IMG/VR virus record: IMGVR_UViG_3300027804_000046
Span: 64,001 to 128,000 of that record
Length of the DNA: 64,000 nucleotides
Reading direction: 5' to 3' (one strand)
Origin: a virus
In this document: positions 27,823 through 41,204 of the stretch, one piece after another
How positions within the stretch are numbered: the stretch's first letter is position 1
Layout: each line of letters begins with the position of its first letter
The notes under the pieces: model-generated
What the model was told of the DNA's origin: nothing
Seen by the model: only the letters and a program-made list of their open reading frames with translations
The model's database searches: none
Position numbers and translations under genes: made by a program

Positions 27823-28030
27823 CACCTGCCTGCATTTCGTTGGTTTCAAGGATGAGAGATATCTGGCTGCCGTGCGTTTGTTCGGGCAGCCAGATTTCAT
27901 TCATCCTGGTTGGGATCTCCGTGCTTTTCGTGAGATTGCACCAGGCGATACGGTTGTGTTTGCAAATGGCGATCATACACAGGCGCCGCGTAATAAGTCT
28001 TACAGTGACATAAAGGAACCCAATGTTTAG
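27815..28030 (+). CDS. Hypothetical protein
   Basis: HFVGF..FGQPDFIH..WD.RA pattern. Confidence 0.65.
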   Translation: MTNTCLHFVGFKDERYLAAVRLFGQPDFIHPGWDLRAFREIAPGDTVVFANGDHTQAPRNKSYSDIKEPNV

Positions 28031-28298
28031 AGTGCAAAAGGAAGAATATCATACTGGTTTTCAAATGATCTTTGAAAATGGTTGGACGGTATCGGTTCAG
28101 TTCGGTCGTGGAAACTATTGTAAGAATCGTTCCATGAAATTTGTTGGACAAGAACCTGTTTACAAATCGCCCGATGCCGAGGTTGCTGCATGGGATGAGA
28201 ACGGTGTGTGGTATCGGTTTGATGAGGGCGATTCCGTGAAGGGCTGGTGCAAGCCTGACGAGGTCGCCGACTTCATCGCTAAGGTAAAGGCATTCTAA
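28023..28298 (+). CDS. Hypothetical protein
   Basis: FENGWTVSVQFG..YC pattern; AAGGA SD. Confidence 0.7.
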   Translation: MFRVQKEEYHTGFQMIFENGWTVSVQFGRGNYCKNRSMKFVGQEPVYKSPDAEVAAWDENGVWYRFDEGDSVKGWCKPDEVADFIAKVKAF

Positions 28299-28834
28299 TG
28301 AAAATCAACATTCGCGGTAAGACTTCGGCCATGTGTAAGGCCGAAATCAAGTTTGCTACAATCTTCTTTGCTCAGTATATCATGAGCAAGAGACTGCTAG
28401 AAAATATTCAGGTCGATATCTGCTTTGAGAAACAAGGCAAGTATGCACAGGGTCATTGTTTTTCTTATGATGATGGTCCGCGCCCGCGAATGTTTGAAAT
28501 CGGTATCAATTCAAAACTGTCCCGATACAAGATGCTGCAATGCCTCGCGCATGAGATTGTCCATATGAAGCAATATGCGAAAGGCGAGTTGCGACACGAA
28601 CTAATCACAGCCAAGTGGCAGGGCAAGACCTACAAGATTACCAATTCTTTCGAGGACTATCTAAACTGGCCTTGGGAAATTGAAGCGTATGGTCGCGACC
28701 GTTCGCTATATCTGCTCTATTCTTGTGTCCTGAAACAGGAAAAGATTAAGTTCAAGCACGGGTATCCTTATATTCGTGGAAAACGTCTGACAAAAAAGAT
28801 GTTGACATCCTTCAAGACAACTGCTAAGATTTGA
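28298..28834 (+). CDS. Putative zinc metallopeptidase
   Basis: LAHEIVHMKQ...PWEIEA (HExxH). Confidence 0.7.
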   Translation: MKINIRGKTSAMCKAEIKFATIFFAQYIMSKRLLENIQVDICFEKQGKYAQGHCFSYDDGPRPRMFEIGINSKLSRYKMLQCLAHEIVHMKQYAKGELRHELITAKWQGKTYKITNSFEDYLNWPWEIEAYGRDRSLYLLYSCVLKQEKIKFKHGYPYIRGKRLTKKMLTSFKTTAKI

Positions 28835-29067
28835 CCATGATGACAAATGATTGGAAACCGAACGTTGGCGATCTGCTGCATGTCCGTACTGAATATAAGT
28901 ATGGTTGTCGGCATGACATTCTCATCAAGAGTGGAAGGGTAGTGAAAAGTGAGCGATACGATCCAAAAAATACTTTTCGTCTATACACTGGCAATCCTCA
29001 GTATCCCGTTTCTATCATCGCATTGGAACGAGTCACTGGTGTTAAGATTCGCAAAGGTGCAGCATAA
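28831..29067 (+). CDS. Hypothetical protein
   Basis: 78-aa ORF. Confidence 0.55.
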   Translation: MTMMTNDWKPNVGDLLHVRTEYKYGCRHDILIKSGRVVKSERYDPKNTFRLYTGNPQYPVSIIALERVTGVKIRKGAA

Positions 29068-29255
29068 TGGTTAGGTCATATGAAGTAGATTTTTCTGTAG
29101 TTGACAACCGCGTCGGCTTCATGCTATATTGCTTTGAAGAAGATGATTGCATCTGGGAACAGTTTTTCCTGGACAGCGATGATGCACACAAGACTGGTCA
29201 TCGTTTTCTTGATGGCTGTTACATCAGAGGCTTTCCTGTTGATCAGGTAGCATAA
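29067..29255 (+). CDS. Hypothetical protein
   Basis: Coupled start; 62 aa. Confidence 0.55.
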   Translation: MVRSYEVDFSVVDNRVGFMLYCFEEDDCIWEQFFLDSDDAHKTGHRFLDGCYIRGFPVDQVA

Positions 29256-29267
29256 ATAAAGTTCAAT

Positions 29268-29344
29268 GGCTCCGTAACTCAACTGGATAGAGTGTCAGAC
29301 TTCTAATCTGAATGCTGGGGGTTCAAGTCCCTCCGGAGTCGCCA
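29268..29344 (+). tRNA. tRNA-Arg(TCT)
   Basis: TCAGA-cttctaa-TCTGA arm; CCA end. Confidence 0.92.
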
Positions 29345-29368
29345 ATTAAAGTATAATGGAGAAAGTGA

Positions 29369-29635
29369 ATGTCCGCACCAAAGACTAAATCTGCTTACAC
29401 CTCAAAGGGTGAGCGTGAAGCAAATCGACAGATTTCTAAGGCCATCAAGCGTGATCGGTCTGCTATTGTAAAGTGGACAATCTTACAGAAGGCTTGGTTG
29501 AAGGGTAAGAATCCTTGGTTGTCTGTTCCAAATGAGAACACGGCCGATACTCGCGCACGGTTCGTTCGCGTCCGCGCAGATACATATTGGGGTGATCCTC
29601 GCAAGGGATTCATTCACGGGTCAAGCAAGGACTAA
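29369..29635 (+). CDS. Hypothetical basic protein
   Basis: GGAG SD; AWLKGKNPWLSVPN. Confidence 0.7.
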   Translation: MSAPKTKSAYTSKGEREANRQISKAIKRDRSAIVKWTILQKAWLKGKNPWLSVPNENTADTRARFVRVRADTYWGDPRKGFIHGSSKD

Positions 29636-29641
29636 AATAAA

Positions 29642-29717
29642 GCCCCTTTAGCCCAGCGGTAGAGGCAGAGGACTTAAAATCCTTCAAGGGTCAGTTCGAA
29701 TCTGACAAGGGGCACCA
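29642..29717 (+). tRNA. tRNA-Leu(TAA), short variable arm
   Basis: GAGGA-cttaaaa-TCCTT arm; CCA end. Confidence 0.88.
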
Positions 29718-29721
29718 ACTC

Positions 29722-29797
29722 GCGCCTGTAGCATAGCGGTTAATGCTGACGGCTCATAACCGTCCGATCCTCAGTTCGAATCTGAGCGGGCGCACCA
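29722..29797 (+). tRNA. tRNA with CAT anticodon (Met or lysidine-type Ile2)
   Basis: GACGG-ctcataa-CCGTC arm; CCA end. Confidence 0.88.
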
Positions 29798-29813
29798 AAA
29801 CAAAGGAAGTAAA

Positions 29814-30089
29814 ATGAAAACGCCAAAGACTAAAGCGAATGATACAGTCAAGGAAGTTCCTCTAAAAATTAAAGAAGAGAAGATTGATCCTGTTGTTGTT
29901 GTTTCTGAATATGTGTCAACAGACAAGACACTCAAAGCAGTCATAAAGCAAAATCGTCTAACATCTTTGTATGAGATCGACTTCTACAAAGACAAGAAGA
30001 TTGTCGCAACGGAATCATATGCGTTCCATACTCGCAGATATCACGAAGATGCTGCTGAGAATTATGTGAACGGCATTAAAAAGCTTTGA
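29814..30089 (+). CDS. Hypothetical protein
   Basis: C-terminal EDAAENYV motif. Confidence 0.7.
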   Translation: MKTPKTKANDTVKEVPLKIKEEKIDPVVVVSEYVSTDKTLKAVIKQNRLTSLYEIDFYKDKKIVATESYAFHTRRYHEDAAENYVNGIKKL

Positions 30090-30094
30090 TATAA

Positions 30095-30186
30095 CGGCGT
30101 GGGTGTTGGTACACGGGAGGGCCTTATAATCCCTTTAGCACTAGATGAGTGTTCTTGACTTGGTTCGAATCCAAGCACGCCGACCA
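30095..30186 (+). tRNA. Atypical tRNA with TAT anticodon, tetraloop D-arm and long variable arm
   Basis: CGGCGTG/CACGCCG acceptor, GTGT-tggt-ACAC D-arm, cttataa loop, AGCACT/AGTGTT V-arm, canonical T-arm and ACCA end. Confidence 0.8.
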
Positions 30187-30199
30187 AATTTGAGGTAAC

Positions 30200-31279
30200 A
30201 TGAAACCTACTTATCTTGATTGTCTTATGCACAATCATTATTACAAAGATGACTTTAATTATAAAGAGGGCTGGGGCACACCTAAAGAAGAGTGTGATGA
30301 AGGTCTGTTGAACGACATTTGCGATTATTTCTTTCGTAGAATGGAAAGAGAGAATATAGTCAATGGTGCAGAGTCAATAACATGGGGACCAATCATTGAA
30401 ACCCATAAAGAATATGCTATGGCTCTTATCAATAAAGACATACCAAAAGTTCATAATACATTAAAAAACTTATGTAATTCTCCCTTAACTAGAGGCATCT
30501 TTGGTGGAGATTTGTTGTATGAGTTCTATAAGAAGAACAAGCACGACAGAGCAATGTATGTTTTTGGTGTATTCGACAAACTTCTGTCTATATGTGAAGC
30601 TAATGGTCTAATTCCATGCTTCAATCCAGAAGACCATGAATATATAAAGATTGCATACCAAAAGCCAGAACATTTTCTAGACTTGCTTGCCAAGCACTAC
30701 AAGTTTGATATATCTGCTCCGAAATATGCTGGTGGCAATCTTGGAATAAACACAGACTTTGGACTTTATAATCAGCGTGATATGTTTGCATTGTATATCG
30801 CATTGAATGTAGTAAACAAATGTCAAGATAAAAACTTGAGAATATGTGAGATTGGTGGAGGTGCAGGACATCTGGCATTCTATTTGCATAGACTAGGATT
30901 TAGAAATCTGACTATCGTGGATCTTCCTACAGTATCTACTGTTCAGATGTATTTTCTAGGCACAAACTTGTGTCGATACAATGGAATAAATTTTATGTGT
31001 ACCGAAGATTTCGATGGCAACTACGACTTGATTATCAATGCCGATAGTTTCATTGAAATGAATAGAGAGTCGGCCAGTCGATATTTGAACCTGATTAAAG
31101 AAAACGGCAGACATCTGATTTCACTAAATCAAGAAACTGGACCTCATCAATTTGGTGAAGCAGGATTTAGAGTTTGTGACATAACAGATATGCCAAGAAC
31201 AACTAGGCATATGTCATGGATTCGTAAGGGTTGGGTCTATGAGGAGTATCTAGGAAATAAAGCGAGAGTGACGGAATAG
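30200..31279 (+). CDS. Putative sugar O-methyltransferase
   Basis: ICEIGGGAG..IVDLP..DLIINADSFIEM. Confidence 0.75.
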   Translation: MKPTYLDCLMHNHYYKDDFNYKEGWGTPKEECDEGLLNDICDYFFRRMERENIVNGAESITWGPIIETHKEYAMALINKDIPKVHNTLKNLCNSPLTRGIFGGDLLYEFYKKNKHDRAMYVFGVFDKLLSICEANGLIPCFNPEDHEYIKIAYQKPEHFLDLLAKHYKFDISAPKYAGGNLGINTDFGLYNQRDMFALYIALNVVNKCQDKNLRICEIGGGAGHLAFYLHRLGFRNLTIVDLPTVSTVQMYFLGTNLCRYNGINFMCTEDFDGNYDLIINADSFIEMNRESASRYLNLIKENGRHLISLNQETGPHQFGEAGFRVCDITDMPRTTRHMSWIRKGWVYEEYLGNKARVTE

Positions 31280-31338
31280 GTATACGTATCAGTCTCAAAA
31301 ACTGAGTTTTGTGGGTTCGAGTCCCACCTTTCGCACCA
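31262..31338 (+). tRNA. tRNA-Leu(CAA), short variable arm
   Basis: TCAGT-ctcaaaa-ACTGA arm; CCA end. Confidence 0.88.
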
Positions 31339-31498
31339 AACAACAAAATGACATATTGGGAAATATACTACGGTAAATGTAAAGAGAAACCGAATGGATC
31401 TCCAGAATGTCATGCTTATTGTAAATTATGTAATGGTCTTAATTGGAAACCACTAGGACCAAAAACTTACGAAGAACTGCTAAATTTTCACAGGACAC

Positions 31499-31529
31499 TT
31501 GACAAATTGACTTCCTTGTGATATAAATA
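31499..31529 (+). promoter_or_regulatory. Overlapping sigma70-type and T4-late-type promoter
   Basis: TTGACA-N17-TATAAA, whose -10 box is also TATAAATA (31522-31529). Confidence 0.75.
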
Positions 31530-31554
31530 GAATACAGAGTTAGAAAGAACGGAA

Positions 31555-31638
31555 ATGAAATCGCATTATTGCCCAATTACGAATAATCAATTTGAAGGTC
31601 GCCCAGCATGGGCAGACGCGAGGGGTTCTATGCTTTAA
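31555..31638 (+). CDS. Candidate attenuator leader peptide MKSHYCPITNNQFEGRPAWADARGSML
   Basis: 27 codons encoding 19 different amino acids; lies between a promoter and a terminator, and its 3' end is complementary to the terminator 5' arm. Confidence 0.75.
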   Translation: MKSHYCPITNNQFEGRPAWADARGSML

Positions 31639-31663
31639 GTCTTACGGATAGACTTAGTTTCTT

Positions 31664-31701
31664 AGAACCCCGAAGCCAAAAGTTTCGGGGTTCTTCTTTT
31701 T
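31664..31701 (+). terminator. Intrinsic terminator with a competing antiterminator
   Basis: 13-bp stem AGAACCCCGAAGC/GTTTCGGGGTTCT plus TCTTTTT; GGGGTTCTA (31622-31630) can instead pair with TAGAACCCC (31663-31671). Confidence 0.85.
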
Positions 31702-31743
31702 GAGTTATGCGTCTAGAACATAGCAGTTATGCAAAAATAAAAG

Positions 31744-31772
31744 TTGACTTCCTGGTTCTGAACTGCTATATT
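31744..31772 (+). promoter_or_regulatory. Sigma70-type promoter at the head of the tRNA array
   Basis: TTGACT-N17-TATATT, preceded by the ATGC-N7-ACATAGCAG motif. Confidence 0.65.
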
Positions 31773-31926
31773 GTGTTTGTAAGTTGATTGAAAGAGTTTC
31801 CTAGCTGCGGGATAAGCAGCACCGCTGATTAACATTGTTAAGTTCCTTTTTCCTAGTGATATCAAAAACTAGGCGTACCGAATGACGAGACATCGGTGAG
31901 ATTACTACGATTCGGCGTAGCCTCAC

Positions 31927-32015
31927 ATTCTATTATCACAGACACATGGTGCTGTTCCTTAAGTTGGGTAAGAATGCTTCGGCAAATCGTCATCATGTGT
32001 CTTTGATAATAGAAT
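31927..32015 (+). ncRNA. Unidentified long-stem structured RNA
   Basis: ATTCTATTATCA-c-AGACACATGGTG pairs with CATCATGTGTCT-t-TGATAATAGAAT. Confidence 0.55.
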
Positions 32016-32017
32016 AT

Positions 32018-32093
32018 TGGATAGTAGCTCCAGCGGTAGAGCGCCTCGCTGTTAACGAGGATGTCCTTGGTTCGAATCCAAGCTATCCAGCCA
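32018..32093 (+). tRNA. tRNA-Asn(GTT)
   Basis: CCTCG-ctgttaa-CGAGG arm; GCCA end. Confidence 0.93.
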
Positions 32094-32179
32094 ATTCACG
32101 GTTCGTTAGAATTAGTGCGATTAAAGTAACGAGTCGGCAGGATGCATACTGTGACCGATCTTCGCCGTGATAATAATTT

Positions 32180-32254
32180 GCGCCAGTAACTCAGTGGTAG
32201 AGTAGCGGTCTCTTAAACCGAATGTCGTGAGTTCGATTCTCACCTGGCACACCA
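32180..32254 (+). tRNA. tRNA-Lys(CTT)
   Basis: CGGT-ctcttaa-ACCG arm; CCA end. Confidence 0.88.
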
Positions 32255-32348
32255 ATTAGAATGTAGTGTGGGTAGTAGGGCCAACTGTAAAATGGAAACC
32301 CCGATCAGCAACTCGCGTAAAAATACATTACATTCTAACTAAACAAAC

Positions 32349-32422
32349 GGTCTTGTAGTGAATGGATATCACACCTCTCTGTCTAAGAGGAGAAGCGAGT
32401 TTGAGCCTCGCCAAGATCGCCA
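32349..32422 (+). tRNA. tRNA-Asp(GTC)
   Basis: CCTCT-ctgtcta-AGAGG arm; variant T-loop TTTGAGC; GCCA end. Confidence 0.85.
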
Positions 32423-32501
32423 TATATAAGAACTGGCAGCAGTCGGTGAAGCAGTATTGTGAAGTGCTGTGGAGAGTGTCAGTTCTTATAAACAAGTATA
32501 A

Positions 32502-32578
32502 CGGAGTGTGGCTCAGTCTGGTAGAGCATTCGCTTTGGGAGCGAAGTGTCGTGGGTTCGAATCCTACCACTCCGACCA
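32502..32578 (+). tRNA. tRNA-Pro(TGG)
   Basis: TTCGC-tttggga-GCGAA arm; CCA end. Confidence 0.93.
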
Positions 32579-32581
32579 ATT

Positions 32582-32682
32582 TGACCGATTAGTGTAACGG
32601 TAGCACAGGAGAAGTCCGAGACATCGAAAGATGGAGTAGGCGTCAAATGCTCCAGAGCGGTTCAATTCCGCACAGGTCACCA
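32582..32682 (+). ncRNA. tRNA-like RNA with an expanded domain replacing the anticodon loop
   Basis: TGACC/GGTCA+CCA, D-arm GTGT-aacggta-GCAC and T-arm GCGG-ttcaatt-CCGC; a GGAG/CTCC stem encloses 38 nt including CATC-gaaa-GATG. Confidence 0.7.
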
Positions 32683-32841
32683 AGTCGCTGGATTACTATA
32701 GAGACGGACGGTGCACTCTGTCTCTTGTGCGTACCAGTAGAGGCGCCGCGCACCCCTCTATAAAAACGCGGATGAAATTCAAATGTAGAGCATCGGTTCT
32801 AAGAACCGTAGTTGACTATATACTCTAGAAGGAGTATTATA

Positions 32842-33162
32842 ATGGCAGCAACTTTACATAGTCAAACAAGAAGACTTTCGGATGAACAAGTTTTCGTTGA
32901 AAATTCACAGTATGCTCGGCATCATATCAAGCGCCGTGTCATAGAACAACAGATGATTCCTTACCGTTGTGCATCTTGTGATAATGACGGTACTCATAAT
33001 GGTAGACCTCTTGTTTTACAACTTGATCATATGAACGGCGTGAATGATGACAATAGATTAGAGAATCTCCGCTTTCTCTGTCCTAACTGTCATTCACAAG
33101 AAGATACATATGCAGCAAAGAATAGAAAGAATGCTGCACGAAAACCTAAAAAATATTGTTAA
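32842..33162 (+). CDS. HNH endonuclease
   Basis: CASC..LQLDHMNG...DNRLENLRFLCPNCH. Confidence 0.9.
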   Translation: MAATLHSQTRRLSDEQVFVENSQYARHHIKRRVIEQQMIPYRCASCDNDGTHNGRPLVLQLDHMNGVNDDNRLENLRFLCPNCHSQEDTYAAKNRKNAARKPKKYC

Positions 33163-33163
33163 T

Positions 33164-33237
33164 ATCAGTGTAGTGTAGTGGTAACACGTTGATCTCCAAA
33201 ATCAAAATCCAGGGTTCGAATCCTTGCACTGGTGCCA
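33164..33237 (+). tRNA. tRNA-Trp(CCA)
   Basis: TTGAT-ctccaaa-ATCAA arm; GCCA end. Confidence 0.92.
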
Positions 33238-33554
33238 ATAAAATGGGCGTGGTAGAAGTCCACTGTATGGGTTGTTGACCCTAGCCCGTTTAGAAGAACG
33301 GTAACAGACCGCGAATCTGTGAGAACATGTGTGTATCGCAAACATACATTAAGTATCCCTATGATAAAAATGCTGGTCTCCGTTAAGAGCGGGCAGCAGG
33401 GAGCGTTCTTCTAACTCAATTCAAGAAACGTGCCCTTTACGGTTGAAATAAACTAGGGTGTTACTGAATGATTTTCTCTCTTCGGCCGATTAAAGAGAGA
33501 CCGTTAAATAAGTAACCGTTTGCCTGACTGCGATAGTGACAGGAGCTATTAATA

Positions 33555-33629
33555 GGGCCCTTAGTGATAATGGGAGCACATCGCCTTTGCACGGCGAGGG
33601 TAAGAGTTCGATTCTCTTAGGGTCCACCA
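33555..33629 (+). tRNA. tRNA-Ala(TGC)
   Basis: TCGCC-tttgcac-GGCGA arm; G3.U70 pair; CCA end. Confidence 0.92.
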
Positions 33630-33828
33630 ATAATGATCTGACTACGTAGCAGCAGTGCGCGTCATGAATGTCAGACAGTCAGTCGAATAACTGTGAGATT
33701 GACATCAAGTTTGATCTGTCACCATCGCACAGGACGCCGTTCGCTTGAGAACGGAATAACGTTACTGTGAATGTGTCGCCAAGTTACAGACGACATTCGA
33801 GCCGACCGCGTGAGGCTCAGCAAGTTTT

Positions 33829-33912
33829 GGGTAGGTAAAGCTAGTGGTTCTAGCAGTGGGTCTGTAAAACCCATCCTTAAAGGGAGTGGATCGTAACCGC
33901 ACCTGCCCACCA
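33829..33912 (+). tRNA. Atypical tRNA with GTA anticodon, possible 8/4 fold
   Basis: GGGTAGGT/ACCTGCCC acceptor, 5-bp D-stem, 6-bp anticodon stem, 4-bp T-stem GTGG-atcgtaa-CCGC and ACCA end. Confidence 0.75.
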
Positions 33913-34137
33913 AATTACCCGTCTTTCTAGATAAGACAGGGGAGACCTAATAGGCCCAACATGAGGGAAAGCCTATGAATACAGGATTGCTGACTCTGTT
34001 CGCGAAAGGGCTTAACCTGTAAGGTGTAACGAATATAGTAACCGCCGTAGGCCGTGGCGGTATATAAATCCGAGACTATATGTCTGTCGGGGTTGACCGT
34101 CCTTTCAGTGGGACCAGCGAAACGGTTCACAATTCAA

Positions 34138-34211
34138 TGCCCATTAGCTCAATGGTAGAGCGCTCGACCGATAATCGAGTTACAGTAGTTCGATTCTACT
34201 ATGGGCAACCA
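34138..34211 (+). tRNA. tRNA-Ile(GAT)
   Basis: CTCGA-ccgataa-TCGAG arm (C33); CCA end. Confidence 0.9.
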
Positions 34212-34344
34212 ATTGCCATAAGCTAGGCGCCATAGCGAACTGGCAGTAAACAGGCTACACCCTTTCCCTCGCGCGGGGTGTCCGCATAAGCGTTTGCGTG
34301 GTTAGTCTGGGGTAAGAGTCCCAAGCTTGGAGGGATGAATTTAT

Positions 34345-34441
34345 TTCTAGCATAGCCTGGGGCGGTAGGTGCACACTACCAAAGTACTTGTATTTTGATA
34401 GTGACTACCAAAGTACGGTTCAAATCCGTCGCTAGAAGCCA
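34345..34441 (+). ncRNA. tRNA-like RNA with an extended hairpin instead of an anticodon loop
   Basis: TTCTAGC/GCTAGAA+GCCA, GCCT/AGGT D-stem, ACGG-ttcaaat-CCGT T-arm and central CACTACCAAAGTAC/GTATTTTGATAGTG hairpin. Confidence 0.7.
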
Positions 34442-34447
34442 GTTTAT

Positions 34448-34521
34448 TGGGAGATCGTCTAACGGCAGGACGTTGGATTTTGATTCCAACTATCTAGGTT
34501 CGAATCCTAGTCTCCCAGCCA
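34448..34521 (+). tRNA. tRNA-Gln(TTG)
   Basis: TTGGA-ttttgat-TCCAA arm; GCCA end. Confidence 0.92.
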
Positions 34522-34524
34522 ATT

Positions 34525-34599
34525 GAACCCTTAACTCAGTGGTAGAGTAGCGGGCTTTTAATCCGTCTGTCCTGGGTTCGAATCCCAGAGGGTTCTCCA
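34525..34599 (+). tRNA. tRNA-Lys(TTT)
   Basis: GCGGG-cttttaa-TCCGT arm; CCA end. Confidence 0.9.
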
Positions 34600-34600
34600 T

Positions 34601-34672
34601 GGAGCATTCGACTATCGGTTAGGTCACATCCCTTTCAAGGATGAGAGACGGGTTCGACTCCCGTATGCTCTA
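34601..34672 (+). tRNA. tRNA-Glu(TTC), CCA not encoded
   Basis: CATCC-ctttcaa-GGATG arm. Confidence 0.88.
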
Positions 34673-34732
34673 CATTGAAGTCCTCAGGATACTATATAGT
34701 ATGTAAACCCTATTGTATCCTGAGGCTTCCTA

Positions 34733-35347
34733 ATGTTCTATACTATCTACAAAACAACAAATCTGGTAAACGGTAAGTTCTATATCGGTAAACATAAGAC
34801 CAAAGACTTGGATGATGGATACATGGGATCAGGCAAAATACTGAAACATGCCATCTCCAAGTATGGTCTTGATAACTTTCATAAAGAGATTCTTCATATA
34901 TGTAAAGATGAAGCTCATATGGATTTGTTAGAAAGTATTCTTGTAGTTCCTGATGTTGAAACAAACTATAATCTATGTGAAGGTGGCAAAGGTGGTTGGA
35001 GTTTCATAAACGCACAGCCAGAGATTCGTCAAAAGAGACGGGAGCATGGCAAATCGCGTCCTCTAGAACACTTCAAACGAATGGGTAAAGCTAATGCCGA
35101 AAACACATCTCGTAGGATGAAATCTCTTCATGCCGAAGGTAAAATTCGATATGATACTTGGAAAGGCAAAAAACATACCGACGAACAAAAACAAAAGCTT
35201 TCTGCCATCATGAAAGAAAAGCAGAAAGGATCTAAAAACTCTCAATATGGAACATGTTGGATTACAAATGACCGAGAAAACAAAAAGATCAAACGCCAAG
35301 ACCTCAATGCGTGGATCGAACAAGGATACAGACAAGGTCGTGTCTAA
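34733..35347 (+). CDS. Seg-like GIY-YIG homing endonuclease
   Basis: YTIYKTTNLVNGKFYIGKH..YMGSG..YNL; NUMOD3-like KGKKHT; KNSQYGTCWIT. Confidence 0.9.
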   Translation: MFYTIYKTTNLVNGKFYIGKHKTKDLDDGYMGSGKILKHAISKYGLDNFHKEILHICKDEAHMDLLESILVVPDVETNYNLCEGGKGGWSFINAQPEIRQKRREHGKSRPLEHFKRMGKANAENTSRRMKSLHAEGKIRYDTWKGKKHTDEQKQKLSAIMKEKQKGSKNSQYGTCWITNDRENKKIKRQDLNAWIEQGYRQGRV

Positions 35348-35483
35348 TCCATTTACCATCACATCACTATCAGAAGTTGGCGCTAAGTCTATTAAGCGAC
35401 TCTATGAGAAGATGGGTTATAAACATGTATCTATAAAATACGATAACAAGAAAGAAGTATATACTAATACATTCAAGTAATAT

Positions 35484-35556
35484 TGCGGGTTAGAGAAGCG
35501 GTCATCTCGCTTGGCTCATACCCAGGAAATCGTCAGTTCGAATCTGGCACCCGCTA
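35484..35556 (+). tRNA. tRNA-fMet(CAT)-like, CCA not encoded
   Basis: Unpaired 1:72, AGAG/TCTC-type D-stem and ctcatac loop. Confidence 0.82.
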
Positions 35557-35557
35557 C

Positions 35558-35631
35558 GCTGCATTAGTTTAATGGTAAAACATCGGTTTGTGGAGCCGAT
35601 TACAGTGGTTCGATTCCACTATGCAGTACCA
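35558..35631 (+). tRNA. tRNA-His(GTG), no G-1, A73
   Basis: TCGGT-ttgtgga-GCCGA arm; acceptor GCTGCAT/ATGCAGT+ACCA. Confidence 0.9.
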
Positions 35632-35632
35632 T

Positions 35633-35706
35633 TGCCCTTTCGTCTAACGGCAGGACTCTGGCCTCTGACTCCAGCAATTGTGGTTCGAATCCACGAAGGG
35701 CAGCCA
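35633..35706 (+). tRNA. tRNA-Gln(CTG)
   Basis: CTGG-c-ctctgac-t-CCAG arm; GCCA end. Confidence 0.9.
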
Positions 35707-35722
35707 ATTAGGAGAAAACATT

Positions 35723-36151
35723 ATGAACAAGATTATTGGATTTACATGTTCTACGTTTGATTTGTTTCATGCTGGTCATGTTGCGATGCTAGAAGAAGCA
35801 AAGCAGCAATGTGATTGGTTAATTGTTGGACTACAAGTGGATCCTACAATTGATAGACCAGAGAAAAACAAGCCAGTTCAAAGTTTGATTGAAAGGCAAT
35901 TGCAAGTAAGAGCCTGCAAGTTTGTTGATGAGATTATTGTATATTCTACAGAAGCAGAATTGCTTGATATCCTAAACATGCTGCCTATAGATGTTCGCAT
36001 ACTTGGTGAAGAGTATAGAGGCAAGACATTCACAGGATATAAAATCTCAAAGATGAAATACCATTTTAACAAGCGCGAACACAGTTTTAGTTCATCAGAG
36101 TTAAGAAGAAGAATTGCTGTTGAACATTTTAAAATAAATCCGGAGACGTAG
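35723..36151 (+). CDS. TagD-like cytidylyltransferase
   Basis: TFDLFHAGH, VGLQ..KNKP..ER and C-terminal SSS. Confidence 0.88.
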   Translation: MNKIIGFTCSTFDLFHAGHVAMLEEAKQQCDWLIVGLQVDPTIDRPEKNKPVQSLIERQLQVRACKFVDEIIVYSTEAELLDILNMLPIDVRILGEEYRGKTFTGYKISKMKYHFNKREHSFSSSELRRRIAVEHFKINPET

Positions 36152-36217
36152 CAAAACGGTTAATGTACGGGACTGCAAATCCTTGAGGTGCCAGTTCGAA
36201 TCTGGCCGTCTCCTCCA
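36142..36217 (+). tRNA. tRNA-Cys(GCA)
   Basis: ctgcaaa loop; U73; CCA end. Confidence 0.9.
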
Positions 36218-36219
36218 AA

Positions 36220-36296
36220 GCACTCGTAGCGCAACTGAATAGAGCATCGGTCTACGAAACCGAAGGTTGGTGGTTTGAGTCCATCCGAGTGCGCCA
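36220..36296 (+). tRNA. tRNA-Arg(ACG)
   Basis: TCGGT-ctacgaa-ACCGA arm; variant T-loop TTTGAGT. Confidence 0.88.
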
Positions 36297-36338
36297 ACTA
36301 TATACTAAAAGTGGAGGGCGTAACCACTATAAGAAATT

Positions 36339-36426
36339 GGAAGGTTGGTAGAGTGGTCTATTGCACTCGCCTTGAAAGCGAGAGGTCCGAAAGGATCCGT
36401 GGGTTCGAATCCTACACCTTCCGCCA
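36339..36426 (+). tRNA. tRNA-Ser(TGA)
   Basis: CTCGC-cttgaaa-GCGAG arm; long V-arm; GCCA end. Confidence 0.93.
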
Positions 36427-36443
36427 CTCAAAAGGAAAACGTT

Positions 36444-36944
36444 ATGATTAGAAAGCAACTAAACATCGAAGAAGTCAAGGCATTCATCAATGCACAAACA
36501 CCTGAAACAAAGGTGTATCTAGGCGGCGACTCTGAACGTTTCCAGATTGACGGTGTTTGGTATGCAGACTACATCAACGTTGTTGTTGTCCATAAGAATG
36601 GAAAGAACGGTTGTAAGGTGTTTGGTGGAATTGTTCGTGAAAGGGACTATGATCAGCAAAAGGATCGTCCACGTATGCGTCTTATGAATGAAGTCATGAA
36701 GACCGCTTCCCTTTATATGGAATTGCATGATGTATTGGAAGACCGTGAGGTTGAAATTCATCTTGACATTAACCCAAATAAAGAGTATGGTAGTTCTTGT
36801 GTGATCAACGAAGCAGTTGGATATATTCGCGGTATGTGTAACATTGTACCACTTGTAAAGCCAAATGCATGGGCAGCATCTTACTGTGCTGACCGTTACA
36901 AGGATGCAATTCAACATTTGCCTAAGGAAGATAAGGTAGCATGA
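36444..36944 (+). CDS. RNase H-like YkuK (DUF458) family protein
   Basis: YLGGDS..RLMNEV..EIHLDIN..KPNAWAASYCAD. Confidence 0.8.
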   Translation: MIRKQLNIEEVKAFINAQTPETKVYLGGDSERFQIDGVWYADYINVVVVHKNGKNGCKVFGGIVRERDYDQQKDRPRMRLMNEVMKTASLYMELHDVLEDREVEIHLDINPNKEYGSSCVINEAVGYIRGMCNIVPLVKPNAWAASYCADRYKDAIQHLPKEDKVA

Positions 36945-37357
36945 AGAAGATTTTCGTTATGATGGCGGCTCTGGTTGCAATGACTGGAGTTGCTAAAGCC
37001 GAAGATGTAATCATCACGGTCGATGTCTCGGATCAAATCATGTTAGTAGAAACACCAACGGACTATTATGAGTGGAATGTTTCTACTGGGCGAAAGGGAT
37101 ACAATACTCCTCGCGGTGTATTTCAGCCGTATCATATGACCAAGATGCACTATTCTCGCAAGTATGATAATGCGCCGATGCCAAACTCTATCTTCTTCCT
37201 TGACGGATATGCAATACATGCAACGGATGCAATAAACAACTTAGGGCGCCCAGCATCTCACGGCTGCATCCGTCTGCACCCGCAGAATGCAAAGTGGCTA
37301 TATAGAATTGTCAGCGAGTACGGTAAGGAAAACACGACGATTATTATACAGAATTAG
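36941..37357 (+). CDS. L,D-transpeptidase (YkuD family)
   Basis: Signal peptide; VSTG..TP.G; APMP..GYAIHAT..LGRPASHGCIRL. Confidence 0.9.
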   Translation: MKKIFVMMAALVAMTGVAKAEDVIITVDVSDQIMLVETPTDYYEWNVSTGRKGYNTPRGVFQPYHMTKMHYSRKYDNAPMPNSIFFLDGYAIHATDAINNLGRPASHGCIRLHPQNAKWLYRIVSEYGKENTTIIIQN

Positions 37358-37447
37358 GACAGATGGCCGAGCGGCCGAAGGCACCTCACTGCTAACGAGG
37401 CATACCCTAATAAGGTATCGTGGGTTCAAATCCCACTCTGTCCGCCA
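37357..37447 (+). tRNA. tRNA-Ser(GCT)
   Basis: ctgctaa loop; long V-arm; GCCA end. Confidence 0.92.
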
Positions 37448-37462
37448 ATATAGGAGAAACAA

Positions 37463-37609
37463 ATGAGTAAAGACTGTGGTTGCGGTCGTAGTCCAGATGG
37501 CAAGTGTTGCGGTTGGCATAACTTGACAAATGAACAATATGATGCTAAGAAGAAAGAATATGAAAATAAGCAATTGAACGAATCAGCACCTCAATTGTTG
37601 AAAGGTTGA
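37463..37609 (+). CDS. Small CDGSH-like Fe-S protein (48 aa, not in the ORF track)
   Basis: MSKDCGCGRSPDGKCCGWHNL; AGGAG SD. Confidence 0.65.
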   Translation: MSKDCGCGRSPDGKCCGWHNLTNEQYDAKKKEYENKQLNESAPQLLKG

Positions 37610-37610
37610 A

Positions 37611-38300
37611 ATGGAAAAAACTACTTACTGTTTTGATGTTGATGGTACACTGACTCCTAGTCGTTCTCTAATGGACGAAGAGTTTCGCAAAGAATTTGTT
37701 GAGTTTGCAAATAAGCATGATGTATGTCTTGTTACAGGCTCAGATTATCCAAAGACATTAGAACAAGTAGGTCAAGAAGTTATTGATTCGTGTTCGTTTA
37801 TATTCAATTGCTGCGGCAATGAAGTTCGTTCAAAAGACAAAGTTAGATATCAGTCTACGTGGAAAGCGGGCGGTATCTTGTTCATGACTTTGGAATATGA
37901 AAAGCGCAAGAGTGGCTTTAACATTCGTACTGGCAAACATTCTGAGATGAGAACAGGAATGGTCAATTTCTCAGTCGTTGGTCGTAATGCAGACAAAGCA
38001 CAAAGAGCCTTGTATGTCGAATGGGACAATGCAACAAATGAACGAGTGCAAATTGCGGAACGTATCAGAAAACTATTTCCTGAACTAGATTGTACTATTG
38101 CTGGTGAGACTGGACTTGATATCTATCCAAAAGGAAAAGATAAGTCTCAAGTGAAGGATTGGATAGAAAACAAACTGGTATTTTTTGGCGACAAATGCGA
38201 GAAAGGCGGAAACGATTATCCTCTTGCAAAAGTGGCCGATGTAGTGTATAATGTAAAAAATTGGGAAGAGACAAGAAAAATTCTGGCTGCCTTGGTATAG
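37611..38300 (+). CDS. HAD-family phosphomannomutase (eukaryotic PMM-like)
   Basis: FDVDGTLTP, VTGSD, RTGMVNFS..GR and FFGDK..GGND. Confidence 0.85.
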   Translation: MEKTTYCFDVDGTLTPSRSLMDEEFRKEFVEFANKHDVCLVTGSDYPKTLEQVGQEVIDSCSFIFNCCGNEVRSKDKVRYQSTWKAGGILFMTLEYEKRKSGFNIRTGKHSEMRTGMVNFSVVGRNADKAQRALYVEWDNATNERVQIAERIRKLFPELDCTIAGETGLDIYPKGKDKSQVKDWIENKLVFFGDKCEKGGNDYPLAKVADVVYNVKNWEETRKILAALV

Positions 38301-38361
38301 CTGGTGCGTACATACGCCTGAAGAGCGTGGGGACTCTGTTCGATTCAGAGAGGCAGCACCA
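38286..38361 (+). tRNA. tRNA-Phe(GAA)
   Basis: TACGC-ctgaaga-GCGTG arm; CCA end. Confidence 0.88.
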
Positions 38362-38366
38362 TTAAT

Positions 38367-38442
38367 GCGTCTTGGGAGGTGTTGGCAATCTCATCGGTCT
38401 CATAAGCCGAACAACCCAGTTCGAAACTTGGAAGACGCACCA
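38367..38442 (+). tRNA. tRNA-Met(CAT)
   Basis: TCGGT-ctcataa-GCCGA arm; CCA end. Confidence 0.82.
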
Positions 38443-38445
38443 ATC

Positions 38446-38520
38446 GCGGGTATAGCACAGGGGTAGTGCGTCTGCTTGCCAAGCAGAAGGTCATGGGTTC
38501 GATCCCCATTGCCCGCTCCA
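38446..38520 (+). tRNA. tRNA-Gly(GCC)
   Basis: TCTGC-ttgccaa-GCAGA arm; TCCA end. Confidence 0.92.
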
Positions 38521-38566
38521 ATTTATAAATAATGAAAGACCAATCACGGTCTAATGAGGTAATAAC

Positions 38567-38740
38567 ATGCTAAACACAATTGTAGTTCTTATTCTAGTTG
38601 CAGCCGTTCTTTGGGTAGGCTGGGAACTTTGGCAGAATGGTTGGGATGTAAAGAAGGCAATCGGCGCCGTTGTGGCCGCTGGTGCTGCATGGTGGGTTTG
38701 GGCTCACGATGCTGTGACTTCACTTACGTCAGGACTTTGA
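38567..38740 (+). CDS. Small Trp-rich membrane protein (57 aa, not in the ORF track)
   Basis: TATAAATA late promoter at 38524, GAGGT SD and two hydrophobic segments. Confidence 0.7.
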   Translation: MLNTIVVLILVAAVLWVGWELWQNGWDVKKAIGAVVAAGAAWWVWAHDAVTSLTSGL

Positions 38741-38785
38741 CATAAAGGCGCTGATCCGTCGCTTCTAATAACGGATCAATAATTC

Positions 38786-38860
38786 AGCCGATTAGTTCAC
38801 TGGTAGAACACCTCGTTTACACCGAGGGTGTAGGGAGTTCGAATCTCTCATCGGCTACCA
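38786..38860 (+). tRNA. tRNA-Val(TAC)
   Basis: CCTCG-tttacac-CGAGG arm; CCA end. Confidence 0.92.
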
Positions 38861-38914
38861 TTAACGCTAGTCCAGAAAACTAGCGTATTATAAATACTCC
38901 ATAAGGAGTATAAA

Positions 38915-39214
38915 ATGGCAAAAGCATATAATCCAGTAAATAGATTTGGTCCTAGGAAATCAAACGACGAGATATTTGTTATCGATAGCACATATGCTAG
39001 ACATAATCTTAAGCGTAGACTTTTGCAAGAAAACCTGCTACCATATAAATGTTCGTCGTGTGGAATAGGCAATGTGTGGAATAACAAAGAACTAGTTCTT
39101 CAGTTAGATCATATAAATGGTAAGAATAACGATAATAGACTTGAAAACTTACGATTCATTTGTCCGAATTGTCACACACAAACGGAAACATTTAGTTGTA
39201 AGAAAAAAAGATAA
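38915..39214 (+). CDS. HNH endonuclease, paralogous to 32842-33162
   Basis: CSSC..LQLDHING..DNRLENLRFICPNCH. Confidence 0.9.
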   Translation: MAKAYNPVNRFGPRKSNDEIFVIDSTYARHNLKRRLLQENLLPYKCSSCGIGNVWNNKELVLQLDHINGKNNDNRLENLRFICPNCHTQTETFSCKKKR

Positions 39215-39298
39215 GCGGATATGGCGAAATGGCAGACGCACCAGTCTTAGGAACTGGCGGAGTAATCCATGGGGGTTCAAGTCCCTCTATCCGCACCA
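39215..39298 (+). tRNA. tRNA-Leu(TAG)
   Basis: CCAGT-cttagga-ACTGG arm; V-arm; CCA end. Confidence 0.93.
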
Positions 39299-39303
39299 AC
39301 TAT

Positions 39304-39377
39304 GCCTCTATAGTATAAAGGTAGTACACGGCTTTGGTAAAGCCGAGACACAGGATCGATACCTGTTAGAGGCACCA
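39304..39377 (+). tRNA. tRNA-Thr(GGT)
   Basis: CGGCT-ttggtaa-AGCCG arm; T-loop ATCGATA. Confidence 0.88.
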
Positions 39378-39392
39378 GATAAATAATCAAAT

Positions 39393-39479
39393 GCTGGCTT
39401 GGCTGAACGGCTGAAGGCAACGGTTTTGTAATCCGTCGGAGTAATCCCATTGCAGGTTCGAATCCTGTGGCCAGCACCA
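39393..39479 (+). tRNA. tRNA-Tyr(GTA), canonical
   Basis: ttgtaat loop; V-arm; ACCA end. Confidence 0.9.
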
Positions 39480-39496
39480 TTTCTTGTGAGCAAACT

Positions 39497-40186
39497 ATGA
39501 TATATGATGGAATATTTTTTGTTAATCATGCACTGAAAGTCAATCAACTTTCAGTATATAATGAAGAAGAGCGTTTCAATCAGACTATCGAAACAATCGA
39601 TTCTATTAACAAGTATTGCCCGAACAATCAAGTATTCATTTTCGATTCTTCTCCAGAACGTCCCAATGTAGAATACTTCCAGGAACTTAGCGATAGAGGC
39701 GTAATTGTCTTTTACACTGGTGATGAATCAGATGTTAAGAGATTTTCTCAGTTGGGCCAGCGAAGCATCGCAGAATGCATCACGTTTCTGTATTTCCTCA
39801 ACTGGTTTCAAAAGCAAGACTTCAAATCAAAACGCATCTATAAACTCTCTGGTCGTTACAGACTGAACGACAACTTTATTGTTGATAGAGAAGATTTCAA
39901 AGATGCTTTTGTATTTGCAACGGCTCTTGATTCGTGGATGCCTAAGCACAGACAAGATAGTATTGGAGCGCATAAACTATTCCGTCTTCGTTGCTGGCAC
40001 ATGGACTACACTCTGCTTGACACCTTTCAACTAAATCTTTCCAAAATACTTCAAGACTGTGCTACACACGGAATAGATGTTGAGCATTCTTACTATAAAA
40101 ACTTGCATACATATAAGACGATTGAACTTGACAAAATTGGTGTATGTGGTAATATAGCACCAAGTGGAGATTACATTGATGAGTAA
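39497..40186 (+). CDS. Hypothetical glycan-cluster protein
   Basis: ERFNQT..TI.SI and RIYKLSGRY pattern. Confidence 0.65.
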   Translation: MIYDGIFFVNHALKVNQLSVYNEEERFNQTIETIDSINKYCPNNQVFIFDSSPERPNVEYFQELSDRGVIVFYTGDESDVKRFSQLGQRSIAECITFLYFLNWFQKQDFKSKRIYKLSGRYRLNDNFIVDREDFKDAFVFATALDSWMPKHRQDSIGAHKLFRLRCWHMDYTLLDTFQLNLSKILQDCATHGIDVEHSYYKNLHTYKTIELDKIGVCGNIAPSGDYIDE

Positions 40187-41204
40187 AACGGTATTGATTA
40201 CAGGCGGTGCAGGCTTTATTGCACATCATGTTGTGGACTTGTTTCTGCAAAAGACAGATTGGAATATCATCACGCTAGACAGGCTTGATTATTCTGGCAA
40301 TCTTAATCGACTACATGAAGTTATTGATCCATATCCCTACGAAATACAAAAGCGCGTTCGGACAGTCTTTCATGATTTGAAGGCTGAACTGAATCCTCTT
40401 GTGCAAAACTTTATTGGCAAGGTAGATATCATTCTACACTTGGCCGCAGCATCACACGTAGATAGGTCAATCACACATCCTCTTGAGTTCATCACAGATA
40501 ACATCATGGGCACGGCCAATCTGCTGGAATATGCCCGCAAGTTGGATCATCTAGAAATGTTTCTGTATTTCAGCACCGATGAAATCTTTGGTGTTGCGCC
40601 TCCTGGTGTCGCTTACAAGGAACGTGATCGCTATAACTCGACCAATCCATATTCAGCATCAAAGGCTGGTGCAGAAGAACTGTGTGTTGCCTATGAAAAC
40701 ACATACAAGATGCCTATGATGATCACTCACACTATGAATGTGTTTGGTGAACGTCAGACACCAGAAAAGTTTATTCCACTTTGCATCAAAAAGGTCTTGC
40801 ATGACGAGACTGTGACCATTCATGCTGATGCAACAAAGACAAAGGCAGGTTCGCGCTTCTACGTACATGCGCGTGATGTGGCTGATGCTCTGCTGTTCCT
40901 TTTGCAGAACAATCCTCAGCTTAAACCTGATTATGGTCTAGCAAAGTGTCGCAAGTTTAATATCGTTGGCAAAGAAGAAGTAGACAATCTATCTCTCGCT
41001 AAGATGATTGCATCTGCTCAAGGTAAGGAACTAAAATATGAAATGGTTGACTTCCATACATCCAGACCAGGGCATGATTTACGTTATGCTTTATCCGGTG
41101 ATCTTATGCGTTCTCTCGGCTGGGAACCTCGCGTGGCTCTTAGTGATAGAATTAAAGAAGTTTCTGATTGGTATGTAAATAACACCAAGTGGTTAGGAAT
41201 GTAA
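40179..41204 (+). CDS. NDP-glucose 4,6-dehydratase (RmlB-like)
   Basis: LITGGAGFI, HLAAASHVDRSI, STDE, NPYSASKA and RPGHDLRY. Confidence 0.9.
   Translation: MSKTVLITGGAGFIAHHVVDLFLQKTDWNIITLDRLDYSGNLNRLHEVIDPYPYEIQKRVRTVFHDLKAELNPLVQNFIGKVDIILHLAAASHVDRSITHPLEFITDNIMGTANLLEYARKLDHLEMFLYFSTDEIFGVAPPGVAYKERDRYNSTNPYSASKAGAEELCVAYENTYKMPMMITHTMNVFGERQTPEKFIPLCIKKVLHDETVTIHADATKTKAGSRFYVHARDVADALLFLLQNNPQLKPDYGLAKCRKFNIVGKEEVDNLSLAKMIASAQGKELKYEMVDFHTSRPGHDLRYALSGDLMRSLGWEPRVALSDRIKEVSDWYVNNTKWLGM

Follow-up and report, generated by a model that had tools for sequence, protein, structure and literature searches.

Leader-peptide attenuators are exemplified by trpL, hisL, pheL, and leuL of the enterobacteria and by the multivalent thrL and ilvGMEDA leaders, and in the pyrBI and pyrE attenuators of Escherichia coli, termination is set by how closely the ribosome trails RNA polymerase. 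The transfer RNA (tRNA) arrays of phages are now viewed as insurance against host tRNA decay and tRNA-cleaving defenses. The present analysis concerns a candidate attenuator that lies within such an array, at positions 31499 to 31701 of a window of 64,000 nucleotides, which comprises bases 64001 to 128000 of a 136.5-kb virus record in IMG/VR (IMGVR_UViG_3300027804_000046). The DNA polymerase of this record shares 52% identity with gp43 of T4-like cyanomyoviruses, and the structural genes, too, resemble those of T4. In the published literature, the leader-peptide attenuator pheL is described in print (PMC3082878). The long tRNA operon of Anabaena sp. PCC 7120, according to the abstracts, stays silent until translational stress and is repressed by TrcR (PMC8421152, PMC10272220), and phage tRNAs are described as countering tRNA-cleaving defenses such as PARIS and retron Eco7 (PMC11464382, PMC11555353).

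The element in the window, here called the module, consists in order of TTGACA, 17 nucleotides, TATAAATA, a leader of about 25 nucleotides, a 27-codon open reading frame (ORF), a hairpin of 7 bp, and a terminator of 13 bp followed by a T-tract. This anatomy of promoter, ORF, hairpin, and terminator is confirmed as real, conserved, and statistically unusual, and, as the original prediction of an attenuator at this site had proposed to check, its parts stay together in every relative found. Of the readings considered, the likeliest, to which we tentatively assign a probability of roughly 0.42, is that the module is a trp-type ribosome-operated attenuator, gating late read-through into 24 or 25 tRNA genes by general translation status, with a small late gene close behind.

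Under this attenuator reading, transcription would start at the module's own promoter, which carries a late motif in all copies and a sigma-70-type -35 element (at least five of six matches, 16- to 18-nucleotide spacing) in 17 of the family's 26 distinct upstream regions. The RNA would offer four segments, namely C-runs in codons 6 and 7 (segment 1) and in the 5' arm of the terminator (segment 3), and G-runs in codons 23 to 25 (segment 2) and in the terminator's 3' arm (segment 4). A ribosome at the stop codon would cover segment 2, leaving segments 3 and 4 to form the terminator and to yield an RNA of about 165 nucleotides. A ribosome lagging or stalled in approximately codons 5 to 12 would instead cover segment 1 and free segment 2; segments 2 and 3 could then pair, clamped by the following hairpin (hairpin B), and RNA polymerase would continue into the 24 or 25 tRNA genes. 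With no ribosome on the leader, segments 1 and 2 would pair with each other and the terminator would form. What the module would sense late in infection is the overall speed or capacity of translation, not amino acids one by one. A more pointed version, in which the module acts as a gauge of translational capacity, so that late in infection or under attack by a tRNA-cutting defense an unfinished ORF of 26 to 28 codons would let late transcription into some 24 tRNA genes, appears doubtful to us.

Alternative pairings and a maintained reading frame

To gather related contigs, IMG/VR and metagenome contigs were scanned with patterns and with proteins, and a profile search separated true copies from chance matches, with 4 of 26 and 6 of 24 stretches from two pattern scans being discarded before counting. 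Counting the window's own, 47 copies have a complete ORF; they represent 23 distinct ORFs, all on contigs of uncultured T4-like phages. At least three contigs are present twice among the 47, so the copies are not independent, and one further copy, cut at its 5' end, was excluded from the counts. When a pattern was used that relied on ORF-internal bases only, 17 of its 18 true matches also had hairpin B and the terminator, the exception being L040, whose contig ends near model position 154. Every true match that reaches past the ORF thus has both elements, which indicates that the parts of the module travel together. The module was absent from 50,697 phage isolate records, whether close or distant DNA matches were considered, and the tRNA genes alone were matched there. 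It was also absent from bacterial and archaeal genomes, in which two pattern matches were obtained, neither carrying the module; one of them gave a weak nhmmer match to the module profile (E, 0.0019) that was confined to the pattern-matched stretch, and the other gave none. An Rfam scan of positions 28000 to 41000 at E values up to 1 found no T-box or other family beyond tRNAs and weak chance matches.

The pairing on which the attenuator reading depends is that between segments 2 and 3. Segment 2, the putative antiterminator arm (31622 to 31630; this and all other features of the module are on the + strand), lies in the last five codons of the ORF, ends 6 nucleotides before the stop codon, and is the exact complement of segment 3 (31663 to 31671), which can pair with either segment 2 or segment 4. 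A complementary run of at least 9 nucleotides between the 100-nucleotide leader and the terminator arm occurred in 0.10% of 3,000 dinucleotide shuffles, and the energy of the duplex is -18.3 kcal/mol versus a shuffle mean of -9.4 kcal/mol (P = 0.0017). Pair counts were made on 24 variants. All of these sequences are related, so the shuffle controls overstate significance and independent covariation events are few. Across the variants, 94.4% of 216 cells of the helix are paired, whereas controls with slid positions reached 70% or less, and none of 500 shuffles attained the percentage or the covariation score. The pair 31630/31663 is compensatory, being A-U in 17 sequences and G-C in 7 and unpaired in none, and position 31663 is outside the terminator stem. 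On a FastTree tree of the module, which is short and weak, this pair changes at least twice.

The structures that flank and compete with this helix are also kept. Hairpin B (31636 to 31656), whose 7-bp stem has a 5' arm starting with the stop codon, is paired in 98.2% of cells, and its loops vary between variants. The intrinsic terminator (31664 to 31702), detected by a terminator scan, has 13 pairs and a 5-nucleotide loop (31664 to 31694) followed by the T-tract; it is paired in 92.7% of 300 cells, has one compensatory pair, and shows stem energies of -19.0 to -22.4 kcal/mol among 22 variants. By sequence, then, an intrinsic terminator is predicted to stand between the leader ORF and the tRNA genes. 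When segment 4 was withheld, the helix of segments 2 and 3 together with hairpin B was the minimum free energy (MFE) structure in 22 of 22 variants tested (-14.3 to -24.6 kcal/mol), the energy of the segment 2:3 fold is close to that of the terminator, and the RNAalifold consensus is the segment 2:3 fold as well. Segment 1 (31563 to 31574), which consists of GCAT and the C-run in codons 3 to 7, can pair with segment 2; this helix of C-run and G-run is paired in 95.8% of cells and shows no covariation. In MFE folds of the RNA up to the stop codon, the G-run of segment 2 paired with the C-run of codons 5 to 7 in 19 of 25 variants, partially in 1, and not in 5. A further hairpin inside the ORF, hairpin A (31598 to 31617, codons 15 to 21), is paired in 89.1% of cells and has one compensatory pair, which is C-G in 10 sequences and U-A in 9. 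The overall fold has an energy of -54.8 kcal/mol (z, -3.96), which none of 200 shuffles matched.

As modeled, the pairings 1:2, 2:3, and 3:4 have the four-segment layout of a trp-type attenuator, and in silico, the antiterminator would exclude the terminator and would itself be covered once a ribosome reached the end of the ORF. The coordinates and letters of 31499 to 31701 are as the original prediction gave them, and its structural claims held: the 9-nucleotide complement is exact, the 13-bp terminator with its T-tract was recovered by the scan, and the nested hairpin is present with 7 bp. It had also proposed looking in related phages for covarying antiterminator and terminator arms; the pairing is indeed kept there, with one compensatory pair, but covariation is thin.

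The leader ORF (31555 to 31638, stop codon included) is open in all 47 copies. Its length is 26 to 28 codons across the 23 variants, and in one variant, an in-frame upstream ATG would give 31 codons. On a tree built from the codon alignment, 121 parsimony substitutions produced no stop codon, compared with 5.9 expected (P = 0.0024), and all 7 internal insertion or deletion (indel) events are in frame; the two other frames contain stops in 23 of 23 ORFs. The stop codon always falls between segment 2 and the loop of hairpin B. Variation is spread nearly evenly over the codon, with 13, 12, and 13 variable columns of 24 at the three positions and 41, 33, and 47 substitutions, and the ratio of nonsynonymous to synonymous substitution rates (dN/dS) is 0.58. 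The codon before Pro-7 may encode C, R, T, Y, or I, but its third base is always C, and the C-run is thereby kept; similarly, the third codon before the stop (codon 25) encodes S, A, or T, and its last two bases are always CT. Such bases, fixed while the amino acids change, suggest that translation of the ORF and the fold of the RNA matter most. An ORF that is maintained while its peptide is weakly constrained is as expected if translation matters more than the peptide. Separately, seven bases over codons 10 to 12 (31584 to 31590) are invariant in all 24 variants, synonymous sites included, and no conserved pairing partner was found for them.

Amino acid composition of the leader peptides

The feature that had first drawn attention to the ORF was its composition. 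As predicted, the window's peptide contains 19 of the 20 kinds of amino acid, lacking Val, and has 15 kinds in its first 16 codons. The comparison with same-length sequences that the original prediction had called for bears out that this diversity is rare: at least 19 kinds were found in 7 of 13,914 stretches of 27 residues cut from the products of 48 long ORFs in the window (P = 5e-4; mean, 13.9 kinds), the probability of 19 kinds under independent sampling is 1.1e-3, and the leader is the sole ORF with at least 17 kinds among 118 mechanically called ATG ORFs of 24 to 30 amino acids. This composition and the 9-nucleotide complement had both been picked out of 64 kb, which weakens their P values by one to two orders of magnitude.

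The proposal built on that composition was that of a pan-amino-acid sensor, in which the leader samples nearly all amino acids and the loss of almost any tRNA leads to read-through. Besides the window's copy, one relative has all 20 kinds in 26 residues, and the family median of 17 kinds exceeds the null mean of 13.9, so the family is somewhat more varied than random peptides. The 23 distinct peptides, though, range from 14 to 20 kinds. Leu is present in 4 of them and absent from 19, Asp is present in 9 and absent from 14, Phe in 13 and from 10, and Glu in 15 and from 8, with Cys and Val present in 17 each. Near-complete coverage is not a feature of the family, and since it is not conserved among relatives, a sensor of almost any tRNA is not what selection keeps. 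Geometry would also stand in the way, as a ribosome stalled in the last five codons or so should cover segment 2 and would give no read-through signal there. The comparative sequence data contradict the pan-amino-acid reading, and we consider it very improbable. The 19-of-20 composition, striking as it is, is a property of the window's copy and not of the family, and it should be treated with that caution. The match between leader codons and phage tRNAs is uninformative because the phage tRNA set is nearly complete. A link between tandem Asn-Asn codons and the first downstream gene, tRNA-Asn, was considered and rejected as a family feature, as 11 of the 23 peptides have a single Asn at that place.

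Promoters and the surrounding tRNA array

Two promoter motifs overlap ahead of the leader. A sigma-70-type -35 element, TTGACA (31499 to 31504), stands 17 nucleotides before TATAAATA (31522 to 31529), a T4-type late-promoter motif that doubles as a -10 element, and RNA is predicted to start at about 31535 to 31536. The T4 late-promoter consensus is given as TATAAATA at -13 to -6, with CTAAATA as a known variant (PMC1524935). Among distinct upstream regions of the module, 20 of 26 have TATAAATA and 6 of 26 have ACTAAATA. Across the whole window, the motif is no more frequent than chance would give (3 copies, 3.4 expected), so its meaning rests on position and not on frequency. The 136.5-kb record contains seven copies, all on the + strand. 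Four of these are 16 to 118 nucleotides before genes for the tail sheath, head scaffold, tail tube, and baseplate wedge, and three are in the tRNA region, at the module, before a 58-amino-acid hydrophobic ORF, and before a 99-amino-acid HNH endonuclease. On the basis of this placement, the module appears to have a T4-type late promoter and is probably transcribed late. The dual promoter of the original prediction survives in part: the TTGACA at 31499 to 31504 does have a 17-nucleotide spacer, but only this first TTGACA is so spaced, and TATAAATA is a late motif. Each of the other two copies in the tRNA region, within 38524 to 38744 and 38889 to 39214, is followed by a strong Shine-Dalgarno sequence and a small gene, the 58-amino-acid hydrophobic one and the 99-amino-acid HNH-like one, respectively. 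A further HNH endonuclease ORF, with a PHROG match, is located at 32812 to 33162.

The second promoter that had been noted downstream of the terminator was found again. It lies on the + strand at 31744 to 31772, about 45 nucleotides past the terminator and before tRNA-Asn, and the promoter scan scored it as sigma-70 type with an extended -10 (10 of 12 matches, TG before the -10); it is kept in most relatives and looks like an early promoter, and among the relatives some sigma-70-type promoter is invariably present within about 45 nucleotides of the terminator. With this promoter in front of them, the tRNA genes are not confined to transcription that passes through the terminator. In T4, early promoters fade late in infection. 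If the same occurs here, read-through from the module would be a late route into the tRNA block, and the placement of a late-type motif ahead of an early-type promoter would give read-through a time window of its own; this would meet the caveat about the second promoter in the original prediction. The gating of the array that was originally proposed is thereby weakened, and at most, transcription from the module's own promoter would be gated, given this second promoter and five tRNA genes that precede the module.

Past the terminator, the sequence is in part conserved and in part exchangeable. Past the terminator and ahead of the second promoter's -35, at 31705 to 31740, there is a conserved dyad-like motif of TATGC, 8 nucleotides, and CATAGC, followed by TATGCAAAA; most relatives retain this motif, which could serve as a site for a regulator or as an UP element. 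Beyond the promoter, some 240 nucleotides (31773 to 32017) contain no ORF and have no Rfam match; the first 30 to 40 bases are conserved in most relatives, and a long inverted repeat is found at about 31927 to 32015. At the equivalent place in L002 (1696 to 1763), ARAGORN calls a tRNA-like gene with a two-base anticodon. In L012, L014, and L031 to L034, a different promoter, a Shine-Dalgarno sequence, and an ATG-initiated open frame, read from its first bases only, instead occupy the region past the terminator and before tRNA-Asn, together resembling a small protein gene; what follows the module is thus interchangeable. Relatives of the module occur among the assembled contigs of two RNA-library runs; the shares of X1 to X6 are small, X1 and X3 contain tRNA parts only, and stretches that lack coverage are uninformative. 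One RNA contig of 341 nucleotides spans 31552 to 31892, across the terminator and the second promoter, and another spans 31579 to 31730, only 30 nucleotides past the terminator. Such contigs show neither ends nor levels, and DNA carry-over is possible, so we take the 341-nucleotide contig as a weak hint that the terminator is not absolute.

The place of the module in the array is fixed. It is flanked by tRNA-Leu(CAA) and tRNA-Asn(GTT), with the main tRNA block directly downstream, in 21 of 21 loci that have both flanks, and four further loci, cut on one side, agree on the flank that remains. Contrary to the original description, the module does not precede the array but lies inside it, with five tRNA genes just upstream, Arg(TCT), Leu(TAA), Met, Ile(TAT), and Leu(CAA). 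Downstream, ARAGORN with default settings finds 24 tRNAs for 19 amino acids, and the downstream block comprises 24 or 25 tRNA genes. The claim that the downstream array serves all 20 amino acids stands only if a deviant tRNA-Tyr(GTA) at 33829 to 33912 is accepted, which ARAGORN calls at a relaxed threshold only and which both default ARAGORN and Rfam miss. This tRNA-Tyr(GTA)-like gene is 84 nucleotides long, folds into a clean cloverleaf with a long variable arm, and encodes its CCA, and relatives have a normal tRNA-Tyr at its place. Another unusual gene, at 30095 to 30186, has 92 nucleotides, the anticodon TAT, and a long extra arm; it occurs at the same place in most relatives and has a weak tRNA-Sec-like Rfam score of 27.9 bits, which is below threshold. 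The DNA immediately upstream of the module varies among relatives. In the window, it carries an extra ORF of 57 amino acids (31348 to 31521), which is Cys-rich, has four Cys residues spaced C-x10-C-x3-C-x2-C, and ends within the module promoter. A similar 3' end is seen in L008, and most relatives do not have this ORF. Neither it nor a neighboring 359-amino-acid ORF has a PHROG match.

Competing explanations and known systems

The attenuator reading retains from the original prediction the anatomy, the open ORF, and the pairing, all of which are conserved, and it gives up pan-amino-acid sensing and the gating of the whole array. Several observations weigh against it even in this reduced form. 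The leader peptides have no cluster of regulatory codons, the sole tandem pair being Asn-Asn, in 12 of 23 peptides. The Shine-Dalgarno sequence is weak, as had been cautioned, with a family median of -3.5 kcal/mol, compared with -5.8 kcal/mol for 56 long ORFs of the window and -2.2 kcal/mol for random sites, and this counts against efficient translation. Only 1 of 9 pairs covaries in the helix of segments 2 and 3, another pair of that helix is broken in 7 sequences, and a change in segment 3 of L031 is compensated in the 3' arm of the terminator and not in segment 2. The conserved sigma-70-type promoter after the terminator means that the tRNA genes do not depend on read-through. Ten of the approximately 27 peptide positions are invariant in the 23 variants, some of these positions coinciding with stem bases of hairpin A, and each of the other two TATAAATA motifs in the tRNA region does no more than precede a small protein gene.

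These last two points would also suit an ordinary self-contained small gene, in which a late (and mostly also early) promoter drives a functional peptide of 26 to 28 amino acids, the terminator insulates, and the pairings are incidental or serve mRNA stability. We regard this as a real possibility, second to the attenuator. The module does have its own promoter and a strong terminator, after which a separate promoter follows; its ORF is kept open; and the loci L012, L014, and L031 to L034, which differ after the terminator, argue that it is independent of what comes next. A functional peptide is harder to reconcile with a dN/dS of 0.58 and with variable columns that are equal by codon position, and a ribosome-binding site much weaker than those of the phage's other genes is not what a small late gene would be expected to have. 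Nor does a peptide account for bases that are fixed where the amino acid changes, in codon 6 (third base) and codon 25 (last two bases), or for a complementarity to the terminator arm that is unlikely by chance (P = 0.001) and includes a compensatory change outside the stem. Three family peptides (those of the window, L006, and L016) were scanned against Pfam and PHROGs at E values up to 10, and none had a match.

The terminated transcript of about 165 nucleotides might alternatively be the product itself, a stable small RNA, possibly of dual function, to which the ORF is secondary. T4 encodes small stable RNAs beside its tRNA genes, and the location of the module within a tRNA cluster recalls this arrangement. 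The RNA folds more strongly than its composition would predict, hairpins A and B are conserved together with the terminator, and the invariance of 31584 to 31590 extends to synonymous sites. A frame that has stayed open through 121 substitutions and 7 in-frame indels while the other frames are closed in every variant speaks against an RNA whose ORF is secondary, and Rfam at E values up to 1 has no family overlapping 31499 to 31701. On balance, we find a stable RNA product improbable. If the module is a ribosome-operated attenuator, classic attenuation logic, so far tied to amino acid and synthetase genes, would extend to tRNA supply and to a virus. It would amount to a compact sensor of translation status, providing feedback from translation to tRNA supply for which we know of no published precedent among tRNA genes. 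No leader-ORF attenuator in front of phage tRNA genes came up in searches of the literature outside supplementary files.

Compared with known systems, the module most resembles the trp-type attenuators in construction. As in those, a short ORF is followed by an intrinsic terminator, the pairings 2:3 and 3:4, and in most variants 1:2, are predicted, and the position of the stop codon would let a terminating ribosome mask segment 2. Unlike those, it has no run of codons for a sensed amino acid, its downstream genes encode tRNAs and not biosynthetic enzymes, and it is phage encoded, with a T4-type late motif and a second promoter past the terminator. With the pyrBI and pyrE attenuators, it would share a signal that is general translation-transcription coupling and not one amino acid; the predicted response differs, since a close ribosome leads to read-through there, whereas a finishing ribosome on the module is predicted to lead to termination. 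T-box riboswitches likewise have competing terminator and antiterminator folds tied to the state of the tRNA pool, but they bind uncharged tRNA directly and need no ORF. The work on PARIS and retron Eco7 provides a reason why tRNA supply might respond to translation failure; its abstracts are about the tRNAs themselves and contain nothing on leader regulation (PMC11464382, PMC11555353). The nearest published case is the stress-induced tRNA operon of Anabaena. That operon is bacterial and is governed by a transcriptional repressor, and the abstracts report no leader ORF or attenuator; what it would have in common with the module is that the expression of accessory tRNA genes is linked to stress on translation (PMC8421152, PMC10272220).

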